Part shown: positions 3,430 through 46,246 of the stretch, in pieces
Layout: every line of letters starts with the position of its first letter
How positions within the stretch are numbered: position 1 is the first letter of the stretch
Source of the DNA: Candidatus Pyrohabitans jungbluthii
Lineage (GTDB): Archaea > Hydrothermarchaeota > Hydrothermarchaeia > Hydrothermarchaeales > BMS3B
Assembly: GCA_002010065.2 (NCBI GenBank)
Contig: MTMD02000002.1
Coordinates: 416,001-480,000 of the forward strand
DNA length: 64,000 nucleotides
Direction of reading: 5' to 3'
Made by a program: the position numbers and the translations under genes
Notes under the pieces: model-generated
What the model saw: the letters and a program-made list of their open reading frames with translations, nothing else
The model's database searches: none
Told to the model about the DNA's origin: nothing

Positions 3430-6400
3430 TTCTTACCGCCTCCCTTCTTCGGCTCTATGGTTACATTCGAAACCAGCTCAACGGTCTCGTTCCCCTCAGG
3501 CGAGGAGTAGGTGATGAGCGTTTTGAGCGTGAAGGTGGTGGTCTCGCTCACCTCGGGGTTGAGGAGCACGTACTCCAGGGTTCTGCTGCTTCTTGGTTCG
3601 AGGGCGGTAAAGCTCCAGGTTATGCTGCTGTTCGCGGCGCTGCCGTCGCTGGAGTCTATCACAAACGCCTCCGGTATCTCCTCGGTTACGGTAACGTTCT
3701 CCGCCGACACGCTGCCCGTGCTGGAAATGCGTATGCTCACTCTGGTCTTAGCTGCCTTGCCCTCGTCCTGAGGCTTGAGCTCCTTGGTAGCGCTGAGGGA
3801 GGCGATGCTCTCGCATGCTTCGAGGCTCCACAGGAGAGCACGCTTTGTAATGTTGAGCCACACACTGGCGTTGTAGCCCTCGTAGGAGCTGAGCGCGATA
3901 TCCGGGGCGAAGAAGATGACCCTGCTTCCGTTGTAGTAGGAGAGGGTTAAGGCGGGGTAGCTCTCAGTCTCCTTTGTCGGCAGCATGTCCAGGGCATAGG
4001 CAAGCACCCTGTAGGTGTATTCCGGCTCAATCTTCGCGAGCCATCCCACCGTGGTGAGGTTCGCTCCCACATAGCCAGCGGTAAGGTGGTGCTCCTCCGT
4101 TATGGTCAGATTCCTGGGCTGATACGGCTCGCCCATCGGCAGGCTGCCGAGGTACTTGAAGCCGGCGATGTCTCCAAGGCCGGGATTGGCCTTGAGGGTG
4201 TAGTCGGAGAATATCAGCTCCCTGGTGAGGCTTCCCCGCTCACTCAGCCATGCCTTTATCTCCTCTATTTCGGTGCTATTCAGCTCCCCTTCTTCAGTGC
4301 AGTCGTACTCGCAGTGCCCCATGTTCAGGAGCCACAGCACGGTGTAGTAGCTGCTCCGAAGCTCGTGCATCAGCTCCTGCGTGGTGTTCACCTTCTTCAC
4401 GTAGGCTATCTCTTTAGCGGCTTCGTCGATGAACCACTCGTCGCTGGCATCGCCACTCCAGGCAAGCACCAGGATGGGGATTACTGTTACATTCGCCGAG
4501 GAGGAGTTGTAGTAGGCATAGCCGTCCTCGTCGTAGTAGGTGATGTTCAGGTTAAGGGTTATGTTGCGGATTTCGGGTATGAGCTGCGCCTCTGCAGAGA
4601 AGTTCAGGAGCACGCCATCCTTTGGCGGAAGCTCGAGGCTCCAGGTTACTGTGCCGGTGCTGGCGTTGAAGGATGCGTTTTCCAAGGTGTTCTCCAGCAC
4701 CCTGAGCTCCTCGGGTACTGTCAGGAGAGCGGTAATATTGACTGCGTCGTCGTAGCCGAGGTTGGTGATGTTCACCGCCACCGCAATGCTGTGGCCGCTG
4801 TAGGCTGCGCTGGGTGTGATTATCTCCCCTTTCAGCAGGGGTATCGGCTTGACCAGGAGCGTTTTCTCCACGCTGGAGACGTATGTTCTGCCGTAGTAGT
4901 CGAGGTAGAAGGCCTTCGCTCTGAGGGTGTAGTTTACGGGGTCGAAGCTGTGGATGAAGGGTGTGAGGAAGGTGTAGGCGACGCCTGCGCTTCCTTCGCT
5001 GGTGATGTCGCCCAGCTGCCAGGTTATGGTGGTGGTACCGCCATTGTAGTCGCCGGAGTAGCTAAGGGCGGTGAAGTTCTCCGGCAGAAGTGCGACGAGG
5101 GAGGTGTTGACAGCGGTGTTCTCCCCGGTGTTCCTCACTGTTAGGTTCGCATTTACCACCTTCAGGGCCCTTGTAGCGTAGGTGCTGAGGCTCTCCTCTA
5201 CTACCAGGTGGGGCACCTCAACGACCCTGAAGGATTTGGAGGCGGCCGCAAGGGCGGTGCCGTTCCTCAGCCTTAGAGTGGCATTAAGGAGGTACTCACC
5301 GCTTCCGTTGCGCGGGGTGAAGTAGTTGTGCACGTATTTTACCTCTCCAGGAGCTATTGCCGGGACATTGAGCACCCACCTGCTCAGGGTGGAGTTCCTC
5401 TTCGTCAGCAGGAATTCCACATAGGAGTCTTCTAGGGGCGTGTTCGGGCTGGTGTTGTTTATCTTCACGTAGGAGTCGACGATCTCGCCCAGCCTGTAGA
5501 CACCCCTATCGGTGAACAGGTTCATCTCCGCGCCTATTGCGCTGGCCATCTCGAAGAACGTGGTGGCGTTGGCCAGGGTGACGTTCAGCTCTCCTATGAG
5601 GGTACAAGCAACGGTGTAGTTCCCGGGCGCAAGTAGAGAGGTGTTGTTCAGAGGCAGAGAGAAGCTCAGGTTGCTCGATGGTGGAAGCACCGCTATCTCC
5701 ATGGGCTGCGCAGAAACTCTCGCGCCGGTGGGTGTGTCGATAAACGTGCGCAGGGTGAGGTTGCCCAGCGTCTGGTTGCCGTTGTTGCTCACCGTGCCGA
5801 CAAGCTCTATGGTGTCGTAGGGTGAATATACCCGCCTGCTCGTATTTATGCTGAGGCTCACCACATTCAGAGCTTCCACCTGCAGGGGCGGGAACTCTCT
5901 GACGACGCTGGCTGAGGTTACGCCGTCGACGTAGCTTATTCTCGCCTTTGAGATGTTCCTCTTCTCAAGGGCGGAGAGGACGAAGGAGACGTTGTACAGG
6001 ATGTTTATGGTCTCCCCGTTCTGTATCTCGGGGAATATCCATACAAGGGTGTTGTTGGCTGTATAGTTGGGAGGAGTGATGGGCTCCGCCTCGCCGTAAA
6101 GCACCTCCTCCTCGTAAGTGACGTTTATTCCAGCCAGTAGGTGGGTGCCGTCCAGGATTTCACGTTGATAGTTCATGGCTTCAACCAGCTCCTCATAGCT
6201 GGTGGTGAAGTTGAATAAACCGCTGGTTACACCCGTTACGGAGCCTGTAGTGGTGGAAGGAGTGGTGGGAGCTTCTCCGGGTTCTTCGGCAGCAGGCGGA
6301 GGAGGCTGAGGAATGAACACCGGTATGTAATAGTATACTACGATGGACGCTTCGGCGATATTACCACTGGTGTCAACGGCTCTGACGGTTATCCTGTTTG

Positions 6401-9400
6401 CTCCGTAGCGGAGGGTTAGGGGCTTACCCCAAGAAGTTGTGCCGTCCGCCGGTTCCCAATCTCCGTAATTCAGCCTTACTTTCACCTCCCTAATCCCCCT
6501 GTTGTCCGAGGCATTGCCTTGCAGCACTATACTGCTCGTCTCAAAACTCTGATATGTCTCCGGATATAAAATGGTCACATTGGGCGGAGTAGTATCCGGG
6601 GCACCTCTGATTACGGTGATAGAAGCATTAGCCGCAACACCCAACGTGTTGGTGGCCCTCACCACAATCACATTGGGACCTGGACGGAGGGTTACCACTT
6701 TCTCCCAGTGAGCAGTCCCGGAAGCTGGCTCATACGGCTCACCGTTAACACTCACCTCCACTCTGGAGATTCCTCTCTCATCATATGCAGTGCCATTAAC
6801 CACCACAGTCTCAGTGTAAACCGTTTCGTTGTTCTTTGGATAGGCAATCTCTATAGACGGCTGGATGTATTCCAGGGGATAGCATCCGCCATCGGAGGCG
6901 CAGATTGTACCCGAGGGGCAGAATTCACGTGTTATGCTGTATCCCTTTGGATATGAGGAGGAGAGGATACAAACCACATCATAGGGGTCGGAGTTTGTGT
7001 CCGCTGCAATGCATTCGTCACTCAGCTTAGCATAACAGCCCATATTCTCAGCCAAGCATAGAGCACTGTACTGGTAATTGGCACAGAAAGAAACAGCTTC
7101 TTCGCCATTCTTACCGCATGCTTTGTAGCCAGCAGGACCATACCACCGTTCATTAGTTTGACGCCAGTACTCTAATATAGGTAGTTCGTACTTATTATCA
7201 GAGTGATAATGCTCATAAATGTATTGCCTATAGAAGAAATCGGTGACGCTGCACTCAACACCAACTAAATTGACAGGATATTCTTCTATTTTTTCATAAT
7301 AATCGTAATTTGTTAATAGCCGATAATATTCATACCTACATGGTCCCCTTTTCTTGGTAAATGTATAAATGTTTAAATATCTTGGGGTAGAATAAGCGGG
7401 TATCTCGCCCTCATATGCTTTAACTGATATCATATCGCCGGTATCTGGGGATACCAGCCCAAACATTGAAGCGGGAGCCCAGCATTCTACAATAAAAGTC
7501 TCACCAGCATCAAACACACCATTGTTATTCGGGTCGCTTACAAGCGTGCAGTTCTGACTGCTGTTTTTACTGACCCATGCAGAAGCGCTTTCCTTTACCT
7601 CAAGGTAGTCTCCAATTTTAAGGAATTTAACTCCAATCTTCCACTCCCTCTTGGAGGAATCCAGATTCTTGGCATTTACTTTCACCCTTATCTCCTTCGT
7701 TGGCAGCACAAATATGTCGCCATAATCAATCCATGCGTTCCTGCTGGTATCATATATTTTAAAAGAGACCTCCATGGTCGGTTCTGGGAGATATGGGCAG
7801 TAGCCACCTCTTGCTATGTCAGTGGAGGTGCATTGTAACCCAGAAGCATCGAGGGCAGATCCGCCAAGTGGGTCCGCGCAGTATCTTATTCTGGCGGTAT
7901 TACAGGAGATTTTTCCAAGATAGGTGGTATTCAAAATAAGGTCCACTGCCCCAGAAGAGTGTATAAAACCCTGATTGGAAAATGCGATATTGGATGAGAT
8001 ACTTATGTTTGCTGAGAGGGGGTTGCCATCAGCACACTTATCATCACCCACACCTCCTGTGCCGATTAAAGAAGAAATGTTTCCTTTGCTGGTTATGATG
8101 AGTAAATCGGCAGATATGGCTACTTTTCCGGCATCACCGCCTCTTGCATTCTTATAGCAGCCACAGCTAATTTCGCTGCTAAATCTCCCCCCATTCCCAC
8201 CGTTCGCTGCAATAGAAGTGTTTACTATAACCATGGCTGCCTGAATATCAACCACTCCACCGTTGCCTCCTGGTCCGCCCTGTGCGTCGCCCCTTCCCTT
8301 ACCTCCCCGGGCGCCGTTCACATAAATCGGGAAATTAATGCTCACATTTGTGCCTCTGAGTATCACGCTTCCGCCGTTTCCACCTTTGCCGCCAAAACCG
8401 GTACAGGCATCGTCATCGCTGCTTTCATATCCACTTCCACCCCGTCCGCCAACCGCCTTCAGGTAACCATTGACAGTTATTTCCGAATTGGATTTAATAT
8501 AGATTTTTCCAGCATTTCCGCCGTCTCCACCGTCCCTGCCGAATCCTCCGTTTGCGGTTATGCTACCGCTAACAACTGTTTTATCGGAATTGATAGTTAT
8601 CGTACCTCCAGGACCGGCACTCCCACTATGGCGATACGCATCCCCCGAATTCCCACCTGCAGCAAAAATATCCCTCCTTATATAAACCTCACCAGCATCT
8701 ATACTTATTGAACCTGCTGTTCCTCCACCGCCACCGAAACCATAGCCCTTACCATTTCCGCCATTTCCACCATTTGCAGAGACGACCGAGTTAATTAACA
8801 CTTTTGATGCTTTGAAATAAATCGAACCTCCGCTTCCTCCTCTCCCACCATCCGAATCGGTACCACCACCTCTCCCGCCGTCCCCGCCTCGTGTGGATAG
8901 GGGGGCATACACTCTTATCTCAGTTGCTTTAAAATTAATTAGACCTGCACTACCTCCGGTTCCGCCAGTTCTGTAACTTCCACCTATTCCACCAATTCCA
9001 CCATTCGCGGAAACTGCTCCATAGATGTTAATTTTTTCTGCCTTAACAAAGATTGAACCACCATGCCCACCGCTTCCACCATTCTGCAACCATCCTCCAT
9101 TTCTCCCTCCTCCCCCATTCGCAGAAAGACTTGCACCAGCGTTTATTTGGAAAAGATTGTTCGCATAAAATCTAACATTTCTCGAATTCCTGCCCTCTTT
9201 TGGCACCACTACTGTACCGGTGATGTAGATGTTTGGAGCTTCACAGACGTAGGTTTGGGCATCAAGATTGCATTTTTCTTCAATATCTGCTGCTGAAGAA
9301 ATGTACAAATCAGATTCTAAAGCATAAGAAGAATGGGTAAAGAATATTAAAACGAAAATGCCTAATAAAGAAATTCTCTTAAACCATATGAATGGAATTC

Positions 9401-9428
9401 TTACAATAGGGAGGATTATCTTATTCAT
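3426..9428 (-). CDS. 2000-aa extracellular/surface protein: Gly-rich repeats, Cys-rich region, two Ig-like (Big) repeats, P/T linker, CARDB/DUF11-like Ig domains
   Basis: N-terminal hydrophobic signal; repeated GGxGGxGGxIxIxA units; two similar Ig repeats (VxVNGTAYDERGI / IxLQGNASDNRGI); PQPPPP...TTPSTTT linker; many N-x-S/T sequons in the C-terminal half. Confidence 0.85.
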   Translation of the reverse strand: MNKIILPIVRIPFIWFKRISLLGIFVLIFFTHSSYALESDLYISSAADIEEKCNLDAQTYVCEAPNIYITGTVVVPKEGRNSRNVRFYANNLFQINAGASLSANGGGGRNGGWLQNGGSGGHGGSIFVKAEKINIYGAVSANGGIGGIGGSYRTGGTGGSAGLINFKATEIRVYAPLSTRGGDGGRGGGTDSDGGRGGSGGSIYFKASKVLINSVVSANGGNGGNGKGYGFGGGGGTAGSISIDAGEVYIRRDIFAAGGNSGDAYRHSGSAGPGGTITINSDKTVVSGSITANGGFGRDGGDGGNAGKIYIKSNSEITVNGYLKAVGGRGGSGYESSDDDACTGFGGKGGNGGSVILRGTNVSINFPIYVNGARGGKGRGDAQGGPGGNGGVVDIQAAMVIVNTSIAANGGNGGRFSSEISCGCYKNARGGDAGKVAISADLLIITSKGNISSLIGTGGVGDDKCADGNPLSANISISSNIAFSNQGFIHSSGAVDLILNTTYLGKISCNTARIRYCADPLGGSALDASGLQCTSTDIARGGYCPYLPEPTMEVSFKIYDTSRNAWIDYGDIFVLPTKEIRVKVNAKNLDSSKREWKIGVKFLKIGDYLEVKESASAWVSKNSSQNCTLVSDPNNNGVFDAGETFIVECWAPASMFGLVSPDTGDMISVKAYEGEIPAYSTPRYLNIYTFTKKRGPCRYEYYRLLTNYDYYEKIEEYPVNLVGVECSVTDFFYRQYIYEHYHSDNKYELPILEYWRQTNERWYGPAGYKACGKNGEEAVSFCANYQYSALCLAENMGCYAKLSDECIAADTNSDPYDVVCILSSSYPKGYSITREFCPSGTICASDGGCYPLEYIQPSIEIAYPKNNETVYTETVVVNGTAYDERGISRVEVSVNGEPYEPASGTAHWEKVVTLRPGPNVIVVRATNTLGVAANASITVIRGAPDTTPPNVTILYPETYQSFETSSIVLQGNASDNRGIREVKVRLNYGDWEPADGTTSWGKPLTLRYGANRITVRAVDTSGNIAEASIVVYYYIPVFIPQPPPPAAEEPGEAPTTPSTTTGSVTGVTSGLFNFTTSYEELVEAMNYQREILDGTHLLAGINVTYEEEVLYGEAEPITPPNYTANNTLVWIFPEIQNGETINILYNVSFVLSALEKRNISKARISYVDGVTSASVVREFPPLQVEALNVVSLSINTSRRVYSPYDTIELVGTVSNNGNQTLGNLTLRTFIDTPTGARVSAQPMEIAVLPPSSNLSFSLPLNNTSLLAPGNYTVACTLIGELNVTLANATTFFEMASAIGAEMNLFTDRGVYRLGEIVDSYVKINNTSPNTPLEDSYVEFLLTKRNSTLSRWVLNVPAIAPGEVKYVHNYFTPRNGSGEYLLNATLRLRNGTALAAASKSFRVVEVPHLVVEESLSTYATRALKVVNANLTVRNTGENTAVNTSLVALLPENFTALSYSGDYNGGTTTITWQLGDITSEGSAGVAYTFLTPFIHSFDPVNYTLRAKAFYLDYYGRTYVSSVEKTLLVKPIPLLKGEIITPSAAYSGHSIAVAVNITNLGYDDAVNITALLTVPEELRVLENTLENASFNASTGTVTWSLELPPKDGVLLNFSAEAQLIPEIRNITLNLNITYYDEDGYAYYNSSSANVTVIPILVLAWSGDASDEWFIDEAAKEIAYVKKVNTTQELMHELRSSYYTVLWLLNMGHCEYDCTEEGELNSTEIEEIKAWLSERGSLTRELIFSDYTLKANPGLGDIAGFKYLGSLPMGEPYQPRNLTITEEHHLTAGYVGANLTTVGWLAKIEPEYTYRVLAYALDMLPTKETESYPALTLSYYNGSRVIFFAPDIALSSYEGYNASVWLNITKRALLWSLEACESIASLSATKELKPQDEGKAAKTRVSIRISSTGSVSAENVTVTEEIPEAFVIDSSDGSAANSSITWSFTALEPRSSRTLEYVLLNPEVSETTTFTLKTLITYSSPEGNETVELVSNVTIEPKKGGGKK
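8050..9130 (-). repeat. Coding Gly-rich degenerate tandem repeat (about 45 aa period, roughly 7-8 units) inside the 2000-aa gene
   Basis: Units such as SANGGxGGxG...GGxGGxGGSIxIxA recur; on the + strand they appear as cc(a/g/t)cc runs. Confidence 0.75.
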
Positions 9429-11502
9429 TCTCCCCCTCCTTAGAGTAAATTATCATATAAACAGGAATCCCATTTTCAGCTGCCCACTCGATAGCGCTCA
9501 GGGGATCGTCATAGCTAGGAGCCCTCACCACAGTGAAGATGTACCAGTTTTTGTCCCCCCTACCGTTTTCCAGTAAGATTTCGACGCTTCTGTTTATCCC
9601 CTCTCCGAGTTTGAGTATCGGTGCTCCTATCGTTATGCTCGAAATTGCACTCAGCGCTGCATCTCTGTCTGTTGATAGATTCAATAAGACTGTGGTGGTG
9701 TTTGAGACAGCGACCACGGCAACTCTGTCTCCCACGGCAAGGGAAGTGACGAAGGAATTCAGAGCGGTTTTCACATCCTCTAAGGCAGAAGTGGAGAGGT
9801 TGGTGCAGTCCACTAAAATAACGACATCTGCCGGGGGCTTGCCAGTTTTGCCCTGGATTGTGACGTTTATGGTGGCAGTGACTCTTCCAGGTGGGAAGGT
9901 TTCTGAGCTTATCCTCCTTTCCACCCTAATCCTAGGCCCGATGGATAGTGCTGAATACGTTGTCCCCCCTTCCACAAGTGCTCCATCTTTATAGACCCTA
10001 GCAATGACCGGGTAGGTTCCGTAGGCAAGGTTTCCGGTATAGAGGGTACCCACCTTAATGTATCCCCTCTTCCCGACGTTGAGGGTGGCGGTGGTGTTGC
10101 TGGACCAGAAGACCGTCTGATTGGGAGATAAAAGTTCAACCTCTATAAAAGCATCGCTGATGTTCCTGTTGCCGATGTTTTCCACATCTAGATAGAAATT
10201 CACCAGCGATTTTATGTCGGCATGGGACGGAATTATCTCCAGCCTGTGAATCCTAACCTTTTGCGTTGGAAGGACGTTCAACTCCGTCTGATTCGCGTGA
10301 ATCACGCGGCCTTCGCCATCTCTAATTTCCACAATCAAGTATGCAGCACCAGGCATGAGATGGTCGGTGACAAAGTAGGAGGAATAGCCCACCACAGAAC
10401 CCGCTGTGAAATCTCGTATGAGCTTGGGTGGGAGAATTTTTACGATTTTCTTTTCCTGAACCACCTTGCCCACAATTATTATATTTTTCTGATTTTCTCC
10501 CAAATTGGAAATCTGGGTAAATAGCGAATATTCCTCACCAGCTGGTATTGAGAAATTCGCAAGGGTGGAGTTGTCTTTTTTTATAATTAGGTTCCCCATC
10601 CTCAGGGCGATGCTCGATTTCAGATACTCCTGCAGGGCAAGCAGGCATTGTGATGTCGTATATGCCCTTCCTGAAGCATCAAGTCCCCAGCTTCCATCAG
10701 GGTTCTGACTATTTATCAGTGCTGTGACAAGATTCTCTTTCTCATCAGCAAAATGGCCATTATAAACTAAGGCTTGTAGAGCATTTGCTAATTCGAGTTC
10801 GCCAGAAAGTGTCCCCAAATTCTCCGAAAGATGAGCTGCGGATTTGTAGCCAGCCTTGTAGGCGTCCTCATTGAATATCAGCTCATTGTCAGTTAAAACG
10901 AAGGATAATTTTCCAAGTGTCTGAGAAGCCAAGGCTGTGTAAAGATTATCTGGCGCAAAAGAGCCATCTTGTTGCTGGATTTTCTCCAAGTAGGCGATTC
11001 CCCTTCGCAGAGAAGTGGAATTTGGGCTGGATTTTTTTAGCGCCTCCAATGCGAGGGAGGTATCAATTATGTTGCTTGAGAAAAACGTTGAATATCCCCA
11101 GCCACCGTCTGAGTTCTGGAAAGAGACCAACGATGAGGCATTTGCCCCAATTAGGAGGACTTTTCGGGAGAGGAAATCAGTCCCCTCTATATTGGCAAAA
11201 GAAATCCAGGATTTGCCATTTTCAATGGTGTCTGAAGCATCTATGTAATCTTGATTCTCAAGGGCTAATATGGCTTCGGCTGTACTCCATGGCAGACCTC
11301 CATCCCAGCTGCCATCGGCATTCTGGTTAAGGACCAACCAAGATGCTCCTTTTTCGATGCTATCCTGGACAGATAACCCAAACACCGGGCTTATGCATAG
11401 TGATAAGACCAGAAAAAGTCCACTGAAATGTAATAATCCCTGTATTATGTTTCCATCTGGAAATTGGCAGGCCAAACCTTTTAGCATGGTCCCTGCATCC
11501 AT
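9421..11502 (-). CDS. Secreted prenyltransferase/squalene-cyclase-repeat (alpha/alpha toroid) protein with Ig-like domains and a C-terminal truncated vWA domain
   Basis: Repeats QNADGSW, QNSDGGWG, QQQDGSF, QNPDGSWG; vWA start PADVVILVD...DRVAVV; hydrophobic signal LFLVLSLCISPVFG. The track start at 11640 runs through an AT-rich promoter-like region, so ATG 11502 or 11487 is more likely. Confidence 0.75.
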   Translation of the reverse strand: MDAGTMLKGLACQFPDGNIIQGLLHFSGLFLVLSLCISPVFGLSVQDSIEKGASWLVLNQNADGSWDGGLPWSTAEAILALENQDYIDASDTIENGKSWISFANIEGTDFLSRKVLLIGANASSLVSFQNSDGGWGYSTFFSSNIIDTSLALEALKKSSPNSTSLRRGIAYLEKIQQQDGSFAPDNLYTALASQTLGKLSFVLTDNELIFNEDAYKAGYKSAAHLSENLGTLSGELELANALQALVYNGHFADEKENLVTALINSQNPDGSWGLDASGRAYTTSQCLLALQEYLKSSIALRMGNLIIKKDNSTLANFSIPAGEEYSLFTQISNLGENQKNIIIVGKVVQEKKIVKILPPKLIRDFTAGSVVGYSSYFVTDHLMPGAAYLIVEIRDGEGRVIHANQTELNVLPTQKVRIHRLEIIPSHADIKSLVNFYLDVENIGNRNISDAFIEVELLSPNQTVFWSSNTTATLNVGKRGYIKVGTLYTGNLAYGTYPVIARVYKDGALVEGGTTYSALSIGPRIRVERRISSETFPPGRVTATINVTIQGKTGKPPADVVILVDCTNLSTSALEDVKTALNSFVTSLAVGDRVAVVAVSNTTTVLLNLSTDRDAALSAISSITIGAPILKLGEGINRSVEILLENGRGDKNWYIFTVVRAPSYDDPLSAIEWAAENGIPVYMIIYSKEGENE

Positions 11503-11690
11503 TAAATATTTGAAAAATTTTTTATAAAGCGCGTATTTTTTAAAACCTATATATAATTTTTTAGAAATTTCTTTCAAATAAAATCGATGATTTGCATTTA
11601 GTAACTTTTTGTTATTGAACACGCCTTCAAAAAATGGCAATGCCTATTTTCATCCCTCATGGCCATAAGTGAAGTATCTCCAAGGTTTAA

Positions 11691-12278
11691 CTATTCAATC
11701 GTCGCATGCCTGGTGCGCATCTCCTCCTCTGTTTTTCCAAGCCTCACCATGAGCTCTACTATTAGCGCATCAAGGAAGATAAGAACTGAAATTTCAAAAA
11801 GTGTGCCGAGGGGTGCGAGAGGATAATGTTCCCCCTTTATCTGGCGCATCACAAAGTCCTTCTCTCCGCGAAGCTTCGTCCTGCCCTCTACCACAACCAC
11901 AATGTCCGCTAACCTCCCTAGGGAAGAGTTGGGATAGGTGGTGATAAGCGCCACCTTTGCGCCTATATTCTTCGCTATTTTTGCAGCGTTCACCACGCTT
12001 GTGGTCTCACCCGAGCCTGAGATGGTTATGAGCAGGTCTTCGCGTTCAATCGCCGGCGTTATAATCTCCCCCACCACAAATACGTTTATACCCAGGTGCA
12101 TGAGGCGCATCGCAAACGCCTTGGCTACGAGCCCACTTCTGCCGGCACCGTACACAAACACCTTCTTAGAAGAGAGTATCGCATCAATGAGGGCCTCCAC
12201 CTCTTCCTCACCCAGCCCTTCAGCCACATCCTCTACATGCTTCGTTATAGTAAAAATCGCCTCCTTCAGAACTTCCAT
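11691..12278 (-). CDS. hxlB: 6-phospho-3-hexuloisomerase (SIS domain)
   Basis: VFVYGAGRSGLVAKAFAMRLMHLG, ISGSGET, APLGTLFE, C-terminal RHATIE. Confidence 0.93.
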   Translation of the reverse strand: MEVLKEAIFTITKHVEDVAEGLGEEEVEALIDAILSSKKVFVYGAGRSGLVAKAFAMRLMHLGINVFVVGEIITPAIEREDLLITISGSGETTSVVNAAKIAKNIGAKVALITTYPNSSLGRLADIVVVVEGRTKLRGEKDFVMRQIKGEHYPLAPLGTLFEISVLIFLDALIVELMVRLGKTEEEMRTRHATIE

Positions 12279-39300: not shown

Positions 39301-39351
39301 AGTGTATCACCTGGGATTATATCTTGTTATAATATAATTAAAAACTCACTT

Positions 39352-40527
39352 TTACTCCTCCTTCTCCTCCCTCCTCCCCCTCTCTGCAATCTCCCGCATG
39401 TCATCGTATATCTCCCTGGAAAGCTCGTCGAAGTCGGCTATGCGCCTGCGCAGCAGCTTGAACTTCTCAAACACCCGAGAAAAGCGTTCACTCACCTCCC
39501 CGCGGTTGCGCAGCATTCTGCCCAGCTGGTACAGGTAGCGTATCCTGTCGGAGCGGCGAATGCCTGAGTAGAGCACAGTAACCTCAAGGCTGCGCTTGTC
39601 GCTCGCTGGCAGGTCACCGCCTCTAACCTCGCCCTCAAGCTGTTTCTCAATCCATAGCCTGGAGGGTATGCTCCCCAGAAAGTCCAGGTAACGCCTTGGC
39701 CCTGAGACAACCACCAGGGCGCGCTTCGCCGCCGCCAGATCGAAGCTCACCAGCGTAGCCTGAGAAGCTTTTTTGGTCAGGTGTACCACAAGCTCGGGCT
39801 TATCCAGGTTTTCCTCCCCGCCGCCAAAGAGCGAGCCTGAGCTTCGCATCTCCTTGCCGGCTAAACCTATGCTCGAGACACCCGAAAGGGTATTTATCAC
39901 GTCGGTTGCGCCCAGCACATTGCTCCCCAGCTCTTCTGGCGCACGGTATTCGCCAACCTCGAAGAGATTGTTGAAGTACCTGAAGATCTTCTCGTTAATC
40001 ACATTGAGCTGCCCCTGGACGCGGAGCCCTTCGCTCAGCGCCTCATTGTCCACAGGAAAGACGGCATCGCTCTTGGCAACTATCGGTTTAAAACTCTCTG
40101 AGAAGTTTATAAGTGCGCGGTCAACATCCTGCTCGCTTGGTAAGATGCCCAGGTAGTACACCGGCTCTGTGTAGCTCTTCTTAAGCTCATCTATAAGCAT
40201 GTCCACGCCACCGCCTGTGCCCCCGCCGAAGGCTGAGATCACAAGCAGGCAGTCGAAGGTATCCTTCACGCGGTCTATCAGCTCGACGACGTTGTACTTC
40301 TCCTCATCCAGAATCTGCCTCCCCATCTCAATGTCGTAGTTTGTGCCGTTGCCGTCAAGCAAGCGCTCGCCAAGGAGGAGCTTGTGCTTATGCGGTAATG
40401 CAGCGAGCGTAAGGGCATCGCTGTCTAAAAGCACGCCAGTGTAGGGTACCCTGGAGCGACCTTCCTTTAGAAATACGCTTGCAATCTTACATCCAGCCCT
40501 GCCGACGCCTACAATCAGCGGCTTCAA
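39352..40527 (-). CDS. Divergent tubulin/FtsZ-superfamily (CetZ-like) protein with C-terminal coiled coil
   Basis: GVGRAGCKIA, FGGGTGGG, VDN, VINTL, RGGDLP; TTG start. Confidence 0.88.
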   Translation of the reverse strand: MKPLIVGVGRAGCKIASVFLKEGRSRVPYTGVLLDSDALTLAALPHKHKLLLGERLLDGNGTNYDIEMGRQILDEEKYNVVELIDRVKDTFDCLLVISAFGGGTGGGVDMLIDELKKSYTEPVYYLGILPSEQDVDRALINFSESFKPIVAKSDAVFPVDNEALSEGLRVQGQLNVINEKIFRYFNNLFEVGEYRAPEELGSNVLGATDVINTLSGVSSIGLAGKEMRSSGSLFGGGEENLDKPELVVHLTKKASQATLVSFDLAAAKRALVVVSGPRRYLDFLGSIPSRLWIEKQLEGEVRGGDLPASDKRSLEVTVLYSGIRRSDRIRYLYQLGRMLRNRGEVSERFSRVFEKFKLLRRRIADFDELSREIYDDMREIAERGRREEKEE

Positions 40528-40544
40528 TTGCTTCTCTCCCTACT

Positions 40545-41363
40545 TCAGCCCAGTTCTCCCGTTCTCTGCTTAATGAAGAACACAACCAAGGCAATTACAA
40601 TCACACCAGCTATGACAAGGAGATACTTTTTGAGGCTGGACTTCTTCTCCGCCGCCTGCGCCTTCTCTTTCGCCTCCTTTATTATATCCTCAAGCAGGGC
40701 GAGGGAACTCTCGGCATTCTGCTTTGCCAGATCCACATTACCCCTGTCGTGGAGCTTCTTAGCGGTGTTTAGGGTATCCTTCGCGGTTTCAAGGCGTTTT
40801 TTGAGGCTTTCCACATCCACTCCGCGCTTCTCAAGCTCGTTAACCAGTTCCTCAGCTTCGCTCAGCTTAACCTCTGCCCTGCTTATCTCGCTGAGCGCAG
40901 CACTTATCAATTCGTTGGTCACGTCCAAGTAAAGGGAAGTCTCCTCCTGGTAACCCTTGTTGTCCTCGTCATAGTAAACATACGTGGAGACCTTGACAAC
41001 CTGTATGCGGGTGAGCTTGCTAACAGATGGAGCGTTGCCCACAAGCTTTATTGACACGCTCTTAAGCCCCTTGGGTAGAGGAATTTCAATCTCATTGCCA
41101 TAGTAGGTGTTAGCCTCGCCTCCGTCGAAGATTACGGTGGTGGTGGGGTTGTCCAGCCCTATGGTTATATTCAGCCTTGCCTCCTGAGGCTCGGGCCCAA
41201 GCTTCTTCAGCACCACATCAACTGCAACAGGGTCGCCAATCCTCGCAACCCCAACGGGTGAAACCTTCTGTTCCTCCACTGCCAGGTAGTCGGCAGATAT
41301 CTCAGCAGCTAAGGTAATACCAACGGCAACAATCATGGCAACTACAATAGGTAGAGCTTTCAT
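40545..41363 (-). CDS. Type I membrane protein: signal peptide, beta-rich domain, coiled coil, C-terminal TM
   Basis: MKALPIVVAMIVAVG signal; EAEELVNELEK...KAQAAEKK helical stretch; LLVIAGVIVIALVVFFI followed by KQRTGELG. Confidence 0.85.
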   Translation of the reverse strand: MKALPIVVAMIVAVGITLAAEISADYLAVEEQKVSPVGVARIGDPVAVDVVLKKLGPEPQEARLNITIGLDNPTTTVIFDGGEANTYYGNEIEIPLPKGLKSVSIKLVGNAPSVSKLTRIQVVKVSTYVYYDEDNKGYQEETSLYLDVTNELISAALSEISRAEVKLSEAEELVNELEKRGVDVESLKKRLETAKDTLNTAKKLHDRGNVDLAKQNAESSLALLEDIIKEAKEKAQAAEKKSSLKKYLLVIAGVIVIALVVFFIKQRTGELG

Positions 41364-41378
41364 ACATCTTTCCTCCTG

Positions 41379-42395
41379 TTACAGAGGGCTTATGTCCTCA
41401 AGAAGGTCCTCCAACTCAGGAGAAAGCCTTTTCTCCTCCTTCTCCTCCTTGACCTCATAGCTCCTGATTATATCATCTACACCAGTAATTATCATCCCAA
41501 TATTTAAATGTTTAGACCCAAAAACCTCATGAGAGGAAAAGCTCACCTCAGCCCCAAGCTTGTTCTTAACCCACTCCACAGCGAAGCCCTCGCCGTATAC
41601 GTTGCGAACATCTCCATTTATAAGCAGGAGTATCTTCTCAGGCTTTACATCCTCAAGGTTTATGTAGATGTGGTCTCGCAGCATCCTGCTTATTATATCC
41701 TTTGCCGAGATGTGCTCAGCTTTTATCCGCATAAATCCAATCGTCGCCTTCTTGCCCTCGACCTCCTTCGCCACGAGCACGGGGTCGGCGATGCTCATGA
41801 AGTTGGTTATCGTCGCGGTTATGGTTGCGTGGCTCCTACCTAGGTCTTCGCCGCGCGATGTCAGCACATTGTTGTCCAGAAAAAGCGCACCATCAACCTT
41901 GCTCACGACCTCATGGAAATACTTGCCAACATTTTTGATGTAGTGCAGCCCCTCGCCGCGAGAAGGCAGAAGAAAGATGCCAACCACAGGTACGCGATAA
42001 TACTTCCTAAGTCGCTCTGCAATCACAGGCGCACCGCCAGTGCCGGTGCCTCCTCCTAAGCCGGCAATAACAAAGAACACCTCTGGCTTCTCTGTGTTCG
42101 CCTTCCTCACAGCGTTCATCGCAAGCTCTATCTCCTCCTCCATTATCTTCCGCCCAAGCTCGACATCAGCACCCGTGCCGTGTCCCTTAGCTCTGCTCCT
42201 CCCTATTAGCACGCGGTTTTCCACAGGCAGGTGCTTTAGTGCGGAGATCGCCTCGGAGGTGTCGATGCCAACGCCTCTGAGCTCTTCCTGCTTGGAAGGA
42301 GCAAGAAGGCTGAAAAGGCTGGAGAGAGGGTCTTTTTTGTAGAAAGCATCAACTATCCTGCAGCCAGCTCCGCCTACGCCAACTAGGGAGAACAT
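41379..42395 (-). CDS. Divergent tubulin/FtsZ-superfamily (CetZ-like) protein
   Basis: GVGGAGCRI, GHGTGAD, AGLGGGTGTG, LDN. Confidence 0.88.
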   Translation of the reverse strand: MFSLVGVGGAGCRIVDAFYKKDPLSSLFSLLAPSKQEELRGVGIDTSEAISALKHLPVENRVLIGRSRAKGHGTGADVELGRKIMEEEIELAMNAVRKANTEKPEVFFVIAGLGGGTGTGGAPVIAERLRKYYRVPVVGIFLLPSRGEGLHYIKNVGKYFHEVVSKVDGALFLDNNVLTSRGEDLGRSHATITATITNFMSIADPVLVAKEVEGKKATIGFMRIKAEHISAKDIISRMLRDHIYINLEDVKPEKILLLINGDVRNVYGEGFAVEWVKNKLGAEVSFSSHEVFGSKHLNIGMIITGVDDIIRSYEVKEEKEEKRLSPELEDLLEDISPL

Positions 42396-42404
42396 CCACC
42401 CACC

Positions 42405-43550
42405 TTACAGGCCCTCAATATCTCCGAGAAGGTAGTCCAGGTCTCTCTCTTTCTGAGGCTCAGCCTCCGCGGTTACCTTCTTCTGAATCTCCCTGGCGCG
42501 CTCAAGCATGCGCTTCACTCGCGGAGCGTTGGTTATGCCGGCAAGAAGCACCACGCAGCCGACGTGGTTCTCCTTGGGCAGCGGATAATCGCCGCCTCTC
42601 ACTTCAGTGCCTGCGATGGTGCTCTCCAACCACTCTCTAGCCTTCTCTATACCCTTGCGGTCAAGCTGGTCCGGCGGCCCTGCGATAACAATAAGAGCCT
42701 TGCTGGCAGAGCGATAGTCGCAGGGTAAAAGCAGCCTTCCCTTAACGGCGCGCTTTGTAACAGAGAGGATGCGCGACGCCTTGCCTATCTCATACTCCTT
42801 CTTCTTGAAGAGCTTTGTCAGGAAGCCTTCCTTCTTAACTGCCTCCGAGGCGTAGCCTATGCTGCATATCCCGCCTGCCTTAAGAGTGTTTATAATCTCA
42901 CTCGCATCGACCACCATCTCGCCCACATGCTTGCGGTTCTTCACCTCACCCGCTCTGCAGAGAATGCCAAGGCGCTTTACTATCTCGTCGTTTATCCTGT
43001 CGTACGCCTGGCGAACACTCTCGCCGCTGCGCAGGAAAGCACCATTGTCTACCAAGATGGTCGCGTCTGCATGAGGAATCAGTGCTTTAAGGCTACGGGC
43101 GGCATTGAGGGTGTAGATATCGCCCTCATTCTCCGCGGGTAGTATTCCTATCGCATAAACAGGCTCGTCGTACACCTCCTTAAGGTGCCTGGTTACAACG
43201 CTTATGCTCCCGCTTCCTGTGCCACCTCCCAAGCCTGCTACGACGAAGAAGGCGTCAAAGGCGCTGACATTCAGCCTTGATATACGGTTGAGGATTATCT
43301 CTATCTCATCCTCGGCTATTCTCGCCGCCTTCTTATTATCTGCACCCACACCATGCCCCTTAACAACCGTCTCACCCAGAAGTATGCGGTCTTCCTGAGG
43401 TATGTATTGCAAACCCATGAGGTCAGAAACCGCCGTATTCACGGCTATTGCTTCAAAGGTGTGGGGTACGTGACTTTTTCTATCTCTCATTATGAATAAA
43501 TCAGCTATTTTACCTCCAGCCTGTCCTAAGCCGATTACCATCACTCTCAT
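42405..43550 (-). CDS. cetZ: CetZ tubulin-like cytoskeletal GTPase
   Basis: GLGQAGGKIAD, AVNTA..DL, GHGVGADN, GLGGGTGSG, EMVVDASEIINTL, EVRGGDYP. Confidence 0.92.
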   Translation of the reverse strand: MRVMVIGLGQAGGKIADLFIMRDRKSHVPHTFEAIAVNTAVSDLMGLQYIPQEDRILLGETVVKGHGVGADNKKAARIAEDEIEIILNRISRLNVSAFDAFFVVAGLGGGTGSGSISVVTRHLKEVYDEPVYAIGILPAENEGDIYTLNAARSLKALIPHADATILVDNGAFLRSGESVRQAYDRINDEIVKRLGILCRAGEVKNRKHVGEMVVDASEIINTLKAGGICSIGYASEAVKKEGFLTKLFKKKEYEIGKASRILSVTKRAVKGRLLLPCDYRSASKALIVIAGPPDQLDRKGIEKAREWLESTIAGTEVRGGDYPLPKENHVGCVVLLAGITNAPRVKRMLERAREIQKKVTAEAEPQKERDLDYLLGDIEGL

Positions 43551-43753
43551 CTGCTCTGCCTCCAGCTCTTCCGTTTAGAGTGTACTTTTTCCCCTTATAT
43601 ATATCTTACCTTGGAGTAACTTTTACTTACGAATAACACCTTTAGAATAACTTCCTCACTCGAACCTGAATGTGATTTTGGCTGTCAAATTTTTATGCAA
43701 AACATTCGGGTATCATTAATTTGTGAAAAAAATACCGCACAAAATCACATGTT

Positions 43754-44410
43754 TTACGGCCAAACATTCCTTCCAAACTTGGGATGGTCAGGATTGTATT
43801 TTAAAAATGTTGTTCCACCAAAAGTTTTTGTTATAATGAAAACAGGCGGATCTTTATTTAGATTTTTTCTGAAAAAATTTGTAGGCTTTTTTAAAGATCG
43901 ATTTCCCTCCCAGAAATAGGCACCTTTTGTTATATCTGTTGGATTAAACAATGCTCTAACTGTAGCCTCAAGATCAGATAACATATATTTATTATCAAAC
44001 CAGTTTTTTAGAGGTAGATTGTTAGCTTCTCTGTATCTAGCTGAATCTCGTCCATATATTGCATGTCCTCCAATACCTCCCTCCTTATGCGAACGCCAGA
44101 AATTAGGGCTCGAATAGTCTATGCCCTTATATTCAGCCCTATTTCTGATAACGCGAGCGATACCCTCACTCTCCTTGGGGTTATGACTTGATTCGCTATA
44201 CACCGTTGCTGCAATATCGCGAAGCACCGGTTCATCAAAAATGCGTAAAACACGAAAACCTGCAATATAAGAGGGGGTGCGATTTTTAACTGCTTCTACA
44301 ACCACTTCTTGCACAAGACAACAATCTAAATTCTCAAGAATAAATACCCTGTTATCTCCATCATCGTAATAACCAGAAAATGTCCCATCATCGCTGAAGA
44401 TGTATGTCAT
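43754..44410 (-). CDS. SleB/CwlJ (Hydrolase_2)-like cell-wall hydrolase / lytic transglycosylase
   Basis: IAATVYSES (cf. LA..VYAEA with catalytic Glu), IARVIRNR (cf. V.LNR), DITKGAYFW (cf. DPT.GA.YF); AT-rich; no signal peptide. Confidence 0.7.
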   Translation of the reverse strand: MTYIFSDDGTFSGYYDDGDNRVFILENLDCCLVQEVVVEAVKNRTPSYIAGFRVLRIFDEPVLRDIAATVYSESSHNPKESEGIARVIRNRAEYKGIDYSSPNFWRSHKEGGIGGHAIYGRDSARYREANNLPLKNWFDNKYMLSDLEATVRALFNPTDITKGAYFWEGNRSLKKPTNFFRKNLNKDPPVFIITKTFGGTTFLKYNPDHPKFGRNVWP

Positions 44411-44770
44411 TTATTCGTCACCCTCCTCAAAAACCCTCATTTCCACCGGCGAAAATCGGATTTTCATATAACTAATGTGATGTGGTTCGAGGTCTTTCAG
44501 CGAATCTGGCGAGATTCTAATCTTGATGTCTGATATTTCACCCTCACGTGTTTTTTTAACCTCAGGTGGTCCTGCAACGGCGAATCGCAGCTCCACCTCC
44601 ACGTCGGAGATGGTAAAAGCTGGAATAGAAAATGAGGACAGGGCTTTCTGGCTTTTATACGTATCTACCAGCCTAGCGCTCTCCAAATCTCCCAAGAACT
44701 TCGCTTGTCTCAGTGCTTGCAGTATACCTCCCACCACCGTCTTTAGGCTGACCTCCGCCTGCTCTGTCAT
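44411..44770 (-). CDS. Small DUF2589-like accessory protein
   Basis: SLKTVVGGILQALRQA helix and FSIPAFTISDVEVELRF strand resemble the two upstream paralogues; start moved to ATG 44770 (GGGTGG RBS-like). Confidence 0.65.
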   Translation of the reverse strand: MTEQAEVSLKTVVGGILQALRQAKFLGDLESARLVDTYKSQKALSSFSIPAFTISDVEVELRFAVAGPPEVKKTREGEISDIKIRISPDSLKDLEPHHISYMKIRFSPVEMRVFEEGDE

Positions 44771-44787
44771 TAATATCCACCCCAAAC

Positions 44788-44823
44788 GGTTAAAATGGGG
44801 GATGGAGTCCCCCACTATTAACC
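44788..44823 (-). other. Intercistronic stem-loop
   Basis: Minus strand GGTTAA-TAG-TGGGGGA-ctcca-TCCCCCA-TT-TTAACC, just after the stop of the 215-aa gene. Confidence 0.6.
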
Positions 44824-44827
44824 ACGG

Positions 44828-45475
44828 TCAGCCGCCTCCGGAGCCACCGCTACCGCCGGCGGGAACAGTTATCTTCTCTCCCTCGGAAAGGGGTACCACC
44901 TTCATCGCATCGCTGAGCATATCCAGAACCCTTGCAAGACCTTCAGGTATCTCATCCTGCACAGCATTTACTGTAATCTTCAATGTACTCCTCCTGTCGG
45001 TTTCCCTCTTGTTCGCACTCCGGTAGGTGAAAGAGCCCTTGAGCTGTACCTTGTAGAACCAGCCCCCCGCCTTTGCATTTGTGCTTATGTTCGTCTCAGT
45101 TGTGGATTCTGATGTTTCCACATCCCTTATTTGATATTCAAAGTCTATTGTCATGTCGTTGATTCGAATGAACGGTATGGGTACTATGCTCAGGAGCGGA
45201 ACCGTAAGTTTCGAAGGCACCACCTTGTGCACAGTTTCCTCTCCTTCCCTCTCCTCAATCACCCGGTCGAATTTGAACTCCACGTATCTAGCCTCGTACC
45301 CCGTTTTGTCATCTGTGGCGGTCCAGCTGGAGTCCTCCTTGAGACCCACCTCCTTTATGAAATCCACTGTGGTCTTTGCCGCCAGTGCCTGCGCCTTAAT
45401 AGCCGCCACAAGTGGCGACCCAATTACATGCTCCAATGGAAGAGCTCTCAACTCTGCCGGTATATTTGCCATCAT
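44828..45475 (-). CDS. DUF2589 domain protein
   Basis: LPLEHVIGSPLVAAIKAQ..AAKTT.DFI..VG, VPLLSIVPIP.I.I....IDF, PEGLARVLDML; strong GGAGGTGA RBS; Gly-rich tail. Confidence 0.8.
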   Translation of the reverse strand: MMANIPAELRALPLEHVIGSPLVAAIKAQALAAKTTVDFIKEVGLKEDSSWTATDDKTGYEARYVEFKFDRVIEEREGEETVHKVVPSKLTVPLLSIVPIPFIRINDMTIDFEYQIRDVETSESTTETNISTNAKAGGWFYKVQLKGSFTYRSANKRETDRRSTLKITVNAVQDEIPEGLARVLDMLSDAMKVVPLSEGEKITVPAGGSGGSGGG

Positions 45476-45484
45476 CTCACCTCC

Positions 45485-46246
45485 TTATTTTTCTCCCTCA
45501 GCGAGGAGCTTTGCCTTTTTTCTCCATCCGAGAATGCGTCTTTCCGAAACGCCAACAGTCTTCGCCAGCTCTTTAACACCTTCATTTGTCTTGGTTGCAG
45601 AAATCAGGTCCATAACGGTGGCAATTCCCTTTTTCTTGAGGAGGTCCGCTGTCTCGGCTCCAATACCACGTATTTTCTCCACAGGAAGAGAGCTTTCAGC
45701 TTGCTTCTTCTGTGCCCCTGTACTGGCTGATGGGGTCTTACCGCTCAGTAAGTCGACAAGAACATCCCCAAGTCTCGCCATTCCCTCAGGAACATCTCTG
45801 GTGATTTTCATCTTTACCCTTATTGTGGTTGGGTTGGATTTCCCCAGGGGAGAGAACAGTGCCAGGGTTGGTGCAAGAGAGGCACCCTTTAATGCCGATG
45901 ATATGACCGACGATTTTATAGGTTCTGTCCTCGGCTCCACTATTTCAACCCCAAACTCCACGTCCATCTCCTGAAGCTGCATTACCGGAGGAGGTACCAG
46001 TGCAAGCAGTGGTATGCTCAGCTCCAGAGGTTTTTCTTTGATCTCTGTTTTGGACTCACCAGTTTCAGGGTCAATTTTTCTCTCCTCTACTATCCTTTCG
46101 GCTCTCAGGCTGAAGGTTCTGGCGGAACCTTTCTCCATGCCAAACTCTTCAATGAAGGAGATTGTCTCCTGAAGGGCAAGATTCTGCGCCCTTATTGCAG
46201 CTTGGAGAGGCAGAGCGAAAAGCTGACCTAACTGGAGGAGTTTCAC
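45485..46246 (-). CDS. DUF2589 domain protein fused to C-terminal helix-hairpin-helix (DUF4332-like) domain
   Basis: LPLQAAIRAQ..A...TI.FI...G, IPLLALVPPP, PEGMARL.D.L; then IRGIGAETADLLKKKGIATV.DL...GVSERRILGW; GTG start. Confidence 0.8.
   Translation of the reverse strand: MKLLQLGQLFALPLQAAIRAQNLALQETISFIEEFGMEKGSARTFSLRAERIVEERKIDPETGESKTEIKEKPLELSIPLLALVPPPVMQLQEMDVEFGVEIVEPRTEPIKSSVISSALKGASLAPTLALFSPLGKSNPTTIRVKMKITRDVPEGMARLGDVLVDLLSGKTPSASTGAQKKQAESSLPVEKIRGIGAETADLLKKKGIATVMDLISATKTNEGVKELAKTVGVSERRILGWRKKAKLLAEGEK

Follow-up and report, generated by a model that had tools for sequence, protein, structure and literature searches.

The 64,000-nucleotide stretch of Candidatus Pyrohabitans jungbluthii DNA analyzed here (contig MTMD02000002.1, positions 416,001 to 480,000; 'the window') carries on its minus strand, at 39352-43550, four co-directional open reading frames (ORFs) that we name A, B, M and C in order of transcription. 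A is a CetZ1-like member of the tubulin superfamily, B and C are divergent paralogues of it, and M is a predicted type I membrane protein. The order A-B-M-C is conserved among relatives, B has lost its T7 loop in every orthologue compared, and the cetZ-M pair is widespread in Halobacteriota, including haloarchaeal cetZ1 loci, which is a new finding. We read the operon as a Hydrothermarchaeota elaboration of an older module of cetZ and M, in which A would form the filament, M would link it to the envelope, B would be an end or partner subunit and C an accessory one, and we give this reading about an even chance of being right.

Forty relatives were searched with B; the loci of 32 were fetched and their ORFs scored with family hidden Markov models. 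A full or partial B orthologue was present in 33 of 37 genomes of the same class; none was detected in G004 (93% complete and of the same genus), in G010 (62% complete) or in G035 and G037, which belong to another family. A was directly upstream of B in all 31 assessable loci (in the remaining one of the 32 the contig stops 93 bp before B), M was directly downstream of B in all 30 (two contigs end there) and C came next after M in 23 of 26. Because the same four-gene order recurs in relatives spanning ten GTDB-type families, the operon is conserved far beyond chance. Genes of the window are separated by 9 bp (A-B), 15 bp (B-M) and 17 bp (M-C), and the gaps in the loci of the 32 relatives are mostly 0-18 bp. 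Compared with the window proteins, A was 70-100% identical across the order, B 34-93%, M 32-89% and C 37-96%. An earlier note on this DNA had proposed an operon that combines three paralogues of the tubulin superfamily with a membrane protein of type I, and Pfam, the alignments and the conserved gene order bear this out. The arrangement, sizes and gaps of 9-17 bp that it gave are reproduced exactly by the ORF list, all the motifs that it quoted (G-boxes, T7 segments and tails) are present in the translations, and the gene order, which it had allowed might be conserved nowhere, was kept in the 32-locus synteny search. Its interpretation overall is partly supported. Two relatives have longer inserts between M and C (977 bp in G013, locus L026; 424 bp in G007, locus L027), the gaps elsewhere being 0-58 bp. 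At 7014-8024 of locus L029 (G011), one in-frame TAG splits the B orthologue into 255 and 74 aa, which may reflect either a pseudogene or a faulty assembly of this metagenome-assembled genome.

In tubulin and FtsZ, a subunit's guanosine triphosphatase (GTPase) site is made complete by the T7 loop of its neighbor. A retains this loop. It matched the Pfam families Tubulin (PF00091; 3.5e-30, 106.1 bits against a cut-off of 33) and CetZ_C (PF21011; 2.6e-68), and phmmer aligned it over its full length to Haloferax volcanii CetZ1 (PDB 4b46; 9.8e-110). The Asp and Glu of T7, the latter being residue 218 of A and the counterpart of CetZ1 E218, were invariant in 29 of 29 A orthologues. According to the accessible part of a preprint, an Ala mutant of CetZ1 E218 is blocked in GTPase activity, and the CetZ1 tail and M-loop are essential, with no partner named there for either. 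Like CetZ1, A combines the D..E pair of T7 with an amphipathic M-loop insert and a hydrophobic-acidic tail. The CetZ_C domain, the D..E pair and the C-terminal tail are all found in A, which in a quick tree falls inside the CetZ clade, and judged by its sequence A is a canonical CetZ1-like protein. The D..E pair was found in A alone, in agreement with the earlier claim that only the first gene has the full CetZ T7 motif.

B matched Tubulin only (1.1e-29, 104.5 bits, cut-off 33), with no CetZ_C (PF21011) match at E 0.01, and its alignment to 4b46 ends at residue 201, in helix H7. When 29 A, 30 B and 22 C sequences were aligned together, all 30 B orthologues had a 17-residue gap at the position of T7, which confirms that B lacks this segment, and in every one the M-loop is replaced by a gap of ~25 residues. 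The invariant columns of B fall in loops T1, T3, T4 and T5 and in the tail, and the G-box GGGTG(S/T/G)G is conserved within each of the families A, B and C. Since its nucleotide loops are conserved, B is predicted to bind guanosine triphosphate (GTP); since its T7 loop is lost, it would be unable to activate hydrolysis in a neighbor. The mean column identity of B is 0.64 in the N-domain versus 0.46 in the T7-remnant/H8/S7 region, its least conserved part, in which 0 of 23 columns reach 90% or more; the corresponding region averages 0.82 in A and 0.71 in C. An AlphaFold2 model of B, built from 58 sequences, keeps the two-domain fold (pLDDT 89.2, pTM 0.87), and in it H7 (residues 185-202) is followed by a two-residue link, a short helix (205-212) and then S7. 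Foldseek ranked CetZ1 4b46 first for this model (TM-score 0.76), followed by CetZ2 and a Methanosaeta CetZ, and then FtsZ. The tails of A and B share (D/E)L(D/E)xLLG(D/E)I..(L/F) throughout the order, as the earlier note had suspected from their likeness in the window, and this motif is absent from C. All matches to the B family are labelled Hydrothermarchaeota, and the nearest named proteins are from 'Candidatus Pyrohabitans sp.' and from Hydrothermarchaeota metagenome-assembled genomes.

C matched Tubulin (4.2e-19, 70.0 bits, cut-off 33) and CetZ_C (6.1e-26), and phmmer placed it with 4b46 at 6.4e-46. At the position equivalent to E218, all 22 C orthologues have Asp; at that equivalent to D215 they have Gly (13), Thr (4), Ser (2), Asn (1) or Asp (2). 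Because of the Asp in 22 of 22 orthologues, C is altered but not T7-dead, and the idea that it lacks a catalytic T7 has to be abandoned: only the first Asp is gone. FtsZ itself uses Asp at the E218-equivalent position. Matches to the C family were limited to about 95 Hydrothermarchaeota-type clusters. CetZ1 (4b46) is the best solved relative of B and C as well. Unlike CetZ1, B has a T7 deletion and fails the CetZ_C model, and in a quick tree B and C both branch apart from canonical CetZ. As the D..E pair of T7 is gone in B and altered in C, we do not count B, nor in the strict sense C, as a canonical CetZ.

In an alignment of 27 orthologues, M begins with a hydrophobic stretch, after which come a small-x-small motif and a conserved DYL; on inspection we read this as a signal peptide. 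It ends in a tail with the consensus R-x-(K/R)-R-E-E-L-G, in which E, L and G are nearly invariant; no other part of M is as well conserved as this tail, and the ectodomain is variable. The AlphaFold2 model (pLDDT 88.2) shows an immunoglobulin (Ig)-like beta-sandwich (residues 27-149) together with three helices, the third reaching into the membrane. By prediction M is almost wholly extracellular, with a basic cytoplasmic part of at most ~9 residues, and because the cytoplasm would see so little of M, any tethering must use this short tail. The earlier description of M as a type I membrane protein therefore holds, with only ~9 residues left inside for tethering. Neither M nor six M-like proteins had a match above cut-off in Pfam or NCBIfam, and Foldseek on the M model returned generic Ig-like sandwiches only, with TM-scores of at most 0.34. 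Its atlas neighbors are archaeal proteins, all annotated 'hypothetical protein', with a weak likeness to CARDB/DUF11 surface domains. A complex prediction of A with M residues 228-272, run without controls, reached scores of 0.14 and 0.17 where the mark was 0.32, and it carries no weight on either side of the question of binding.

The pairing of cetZ with M reaches far beyond the four-gene operon and probably predates it. The M profile was searched against 1.84 billion representatives, and related M-like loci were sought with a 4-row alignment. Core members of the family numbered 24 at E 1e-30 or better. A second tier comprises full-length proteins of 260-300 aa (E 1e-28 to 1e-12) that have the same layout and short, basic tails ending in ..WDRLG, ..RKRGIY or ..VEPW. 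At nine of nine Methanocellales/Halobacteriota loci the M-like gene immediately follows a canonical cetZ. When 201 Halobacteriota genomes were sampled, an M-like match was obtained in 90. Among the best 30 M-like loci from these, cetZ is directly upstream on the same strand in 28, the other two being at contig ends; among 20 weaker loci it is directly upstream in 13. M-like and CetZ_C matches occurred together in 80 of the 201 genomes, M-like alone in 10, CetZ_C alone in 31 and neither in 80, counts that we give without a p-value because of the shared ancestry among the genomes. The Halobacteriota M-like proteins are matched directly by the M profile from Hydrothermarchaeota. The CetZ proteins paired with them end in ..PLF or ..LESLF, several in ..ELESLF or ..ELEPLF, which is the CetZ1 tail type, and those with CetZ1-type tails cluster in the tree with named haloarchaeal CetZ.

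At cetZ1 loci of haloarchaea an M-like gene is directly downstream. Locus L103, of haloarchaeal type, reads epimerase, cetZ, M-like, CofC, radical SAM, and for H. volcanii Brown & Duggin 2023 (PMC9856176, Table S2) give the order nolA, cetZ, arCOG03888, cofC, cofG. Since the two gene orders are equal, the haloarchaeal M-like gene is by position arCOG03888, an assignment made on synteny, not on sequence. The same table lists arCOG03888 in 11 of 20 cetZ1 regions, and the accessible main text of that paper contains 0 occurrences of it. A further M-like sub-group (268-312 aa, tails ..TRAKL or ..PRKKL) was seen at L094 (G072), L096 (G083), L097 (G050), L098 (G093) and L101 (G061). No tubulin-like gene lies next to any of them, and CetZ_C was not matched in the five genomes, so the M fold family occurs without CetZ too.

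A quick IQ-TREE phylogeny of 54 rows with an FtsZ outgroup resolved the three families as separate clades (support 99 for A, 98 for B and 98 for C). B branches first (98), then C (98; sister to A plus CetZ, 95), then CetZ including A (90). B and C may be ancient paralogues or fast-evolving duplicates; both fit. Class-level relatives in family f11 have cetZ, M-like and C-like genes and no B, from which the likely sequence of events is that the cetZ-M pair arose first, C second and B last.

In the mechanism that we propose, A would be a conventional GTP-hydrolysing, filament-forming CetZ. M would be exported by way of its signal peptide, with the Ig-like sandwich and a three-helix bundle outside, one transmembrane helix, and the basic tail of ~9 residues inside, where it would couple CetZ filaments to the envelope. 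Since its tail is conserved and its gene stays next to cetZ, M is the best candidate for such a link. B would offer its nucleotide face, loaded with GTP, to the T7 loop of A or of C and probably could not be extended from its own T7 side, the surface there being unconstrained. It might join A filaments by its nucleotide face only, as an end cap or nucleator, or alternatively form a 1:1 complex with A; with its CetZ tail, it would share whatever partner the tail of A binds. C, which has the T7 Asp, no tail, a long charged helix and conservation on both faces, may be an accessory subunit that co-assembles or bundles.

Eukaryotic tubulins offer a comparison. In beta-tubulin, Lys replaces the catalytic Glu of T7, which leaves the intradimer GTP unhydrolysed, and gamma-tubulin caps the minus end by its nucleotide face. 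As among alpha-, beta- and gamma-tubulin, the operon would combine one catalytically complete subunit with a GTP-binding paralogue, B, that is predicted to be unable to activate its neighbor. By analogy with gamma-tubulin, B, with its nucleotide face kept and its T7 face lost, would have the contact topology of a minus-end subunit. Unlike the tubulins, B deletes the entire T7 loop where they have a one-residue substitution, and A, B and C come from the CetZ/FtsZ side of the superfamily. For M, the comparison is with the FtsZ tethers FtsA, ZipA and SepF and with haloarchaeal CdpA (accessible part of PMC12126565), which likewise bring together a membrane partner and a tubulin homologue with a conserved C-terminal peptide. 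M differs from these in that it matches none of their families and is predicted to be nearly all extracellular; recognition might be by the tail of M, by that of CetZ or by both.

Several observations weigh against our interpretation. In G004 neither B nor A nor C was detected. In the three loci without a neighboring C, a C orthologue is found elsewhere in the genome in G018 and G026 (~1e-130) and was not found anywhere in G022, which is 94% complete; linkage of C is therefore not obligatory. No M-like match was obtained at 1e-5 in 31 of 111 CetZ-bearing Halobacteriota genomes, and the few cytoplasmic residues predicted for M would offer little for an anchor. Forcing A, B and C into one clade in an approximately unbiased (AU) test cost 19.4 log-likelihood units (p-AU 0.011), a result to be read with the knowledge that the group was named after the tree was seen and that B and C sit on long stems which may distort their placement. 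Because the AU test disfavors that clade, and with B and C outside canonical CetZ, we dropped the idea that the three genes are recent tandem duplicates; a recent duplication of A is unsupported, although long branches may mislead. T7-deleted Staphylococcus aureus FtsZ mutants are said to pack into filaments in crystals still, so loss of T7 need not abolish self-assembly. Structures of such mutants have been solved (entry titles 3wgk and 3wgm among the Foldseek matches). Finally, all contacts among A, B, M and C are ones that we infer, and the case for joint expression of the four genes comes from signals in the DNA.

The most specific form of our interpretation would have the M tail dock CetZ filaments and the ectodomain reach the surface layer, from Hydrothermarchaeota to haloarchaea, with B as a gamma-tubulin-like cap or nucleator at the T7-facing end of A filaments; that all of this is right together is unlikely. 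An alternative that we hold to be just as unlikely is that A, B and C form separate homopolymers with tasks of their own and share an operon for co-regulation only, with no mixed filament. The separate, well-supported clade of each family, the presence of C elsewhere in some genomes and the distinct or opposing roles of haloarchaeal CetZ paralogues (accessible part of PMC13556191) would agree with this, but B, without T7, M-loop or conservation of the T7 face, is hard to fit into a homotypic head-to-tail interface, and the tight coupling of 0-18 bp has been kept over ten families. B could also work as a soluble regulator, a pseudo-subunit loaded with GTP that would capture free monomers of A or C by their T7 face and so set the amount of polymerisable CetZ. 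The anatomy that would make B a terminal subunit, namely an intact nucleotide face, a missing T7 and a relaxed bottom face, serves this explanation equally, and B evolves faster than A, as many regulators do. All full-length B orthologues have a CetZ-type tail, however, which suggests the same destination as A, and we consider sequestering rather improbable, a little more so than separate homopolymers. Because the contact pattern is that of a terminal subunit or a 1:1 partner, cap, nucleator and sequestering factor all fit B, and present evidence does not separate sequestering from capping.

Doubt of the same degree as for sequestering attaches to the view that M is a surface protein associated with the envelope or S-layer, co-regulated with cetZ or indirectly placed, whose tail is a signal for sorting, retention or turnover. 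Such a role would suit a protein that is predicted to be almost all extracellular, whose sandwich resembles surface-protein domains only, and whose sub-group with other tails occurs in five genomes without CetZ_C. It accounts less well for an adjacency to cetZ, often with overlapping genes, that has been kept over two phyla, or for the fact that the cytoplasmic tail, and not the ectodomain, is the most conserved part; moreover, NCBIfam gave no known C-terminal sorting-signal model. In the proposed module we retain M as the candidate envelope link.

In the literature searched (subscription-only papers and bioRxiv supplements lay outside it; PMC9856176, PMC9871819, 10.1101/2024.04.08.588506, PMC13644373 and PMC13556191 were among the sources, in their accessible parts), we found neither this operon described nor any CetZ-like family without T7 or membrane protein linked to cetZ. 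A CetZ with a T7 deletion, or one in a fixed operon with two divergent paralogues, was not described there either, and HVO_2203 and HVO_2205 were not mentioned. The accessible part of PMC9871819 notes the occurrence of CetZ in Hydrothermarchaeota and goes no further. M, found beside cetZ in two phyla, is a concrete candidate for a protein through which CetZ filaments act on the envelope; if the most specific form of our interpretation is true, the cetZ-M pair would be the link, so far missing, that couples the CetZ cytoskeleton across the membrane to the envelope. The lead that we value most is the wider cetZ-M pairing, since it extends to cetZ1 of haloarchaea that are open to genetics and can be tested in H. 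volcanii. B, with its GTP site kept and its T7 deleted in every orthologue, is a clean test case for paralogue specialization outside eukaryotic tubulin, along two axes: catalytic versus non-catalytic and body versus end. With B as a dedicated end subunit, as in the most specific form, a prokaryotic filament of the tubulin superfamily would for the first time have a specialized end protein of its own.

The features of the operon are collected in Table 1. Every intergenic gap contains a Shine-Dalgarno-like motif (GGTGG, AGGAGG and GGGAG, respectively). Given these motifs, the TATA-like ATATATATAA, the GGAGG before A and the oligo-T run, A-B-M-C looks like a single transcript, the promoter and terminator being candidate signals. 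A search for sequencing runs that contain this DNA listed 11 DNA runs and no RNA run.

Table 1. Features of the A-B-M-C operon (positions in the window)
Feature	Position	Strand	Basis
A, CetZ1-like tubulin-superfamily GTPase, 381 aa	42405..43550	-	Pfam, phmmer, orthologue alignment
A G-box GGGTGSG, loop T4	43209-43229	-	translation
A T7 motif VVDASEIINTL	42882-42914	-	aligns to CetZ1 VVDSSEIINTL of 4b46
A amphipathic/hydrophobic M-loop insert	42783-42830	-	alignment to 4b46
A C-terminal tail DLDYLLGDIEGL	42408-42443	-	translation
B, CetZ-derived paralogue without T7 and M-loop, 338 aa	41379..42395	-	Pfam, alignment, AlphaFold2, Foldseek
B G-box GGGTGTG, loop T4	42036-42056	-	translation
B H7-to-S7 junction at T7 deletion	41751-41795	-	alignment
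B CetZ-type tail ELEDLLEDISPL	41382-41417	-	translation
M, type I membrane protein (predicted), 272 aa	40545..41363	-	alignment of 27 orthologues, AlphaFold2
M signal peptide/N-terminal helix	41304-41363	-	inspection of 27-orthologue alignment
M transmembrane helix, single, C-terminal	40572-40625	-	alignment, AlphaFold2
M cytoplasmic tail KQRTGELG	40548-40571	-	alignment
C, divergent CetZ-like paralogue, 391 aa	39352..40527	-	Pfam, phmmer, orthologue alignment
C G-box GGGTGGG, loop T4	40207-40227	-	translation
C T7 motif VLGATDVINTL, Asp at catalytic position	39886-39918	-	alignment to 4b46
C charged helical C-terminal extension, ~50 residues, no CetZ tail	39355-39510	-	alignment
TATA-box-like ATATATATAA, ~50 nt 5' of A start, candidate operon promoter	43595..43604	-	sequence reading
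GGAGG, Shine-Dalgarno-like, 8 nt 5' of A start codon	43559..43563	-	sequence reading
Oligo-T run, 7 nt past C stop codon, candidate archaeal terminator	39340..39344	-	sequence reading

The next gene beyond C encodes a lysA-type decarboxylase that starts at 39300. On the other side, a four-gene block lies on the minus strand between a LigT-like gene and A (window 43754-46246). Its genes encode a DUF2589 protein of 215 aa, a second DUF2589 protein of 253 aa with a C-terminal HHH/DUF4332 part, and proteins of 134 and 218 aa of unknown family; PADLOC gave no match for the four. The GC content of the block is about 0.48-0.49 versus about 0.54 around it. We considered whether the block belongs to the cetZ system and rejected this: it was found in only 1 of the 32 related loci (G002), LigT abutting A elsewhere, and for this reason we regard it as an insertion. 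It looks like an inserted cassette. An Rfam scan of the entire window gave 0 matches, and GC content ranges from 0.43 to 0.58 over window positions 1-12000.

The 2.0-Mb genome has seven tubulin-superfamily loci: two FtsZ, the three genes A, B and C, and two more ~105 kb off. A second tubulin-like cluster was seen on one strand outside the window (locus L052, 4820-8788; contig C2 of the same genome, about 563.8-567.8 kb). It encodes a distant CetZ-like protein of 429 aa that matches 4b46 over its full length (2.2e-19), a protein of 457 aa without a family and one of 432 aa that matches Tubulin weakly (1.4e-7), and near it are genes for secreted beta-helix and Ig-domain proteins.

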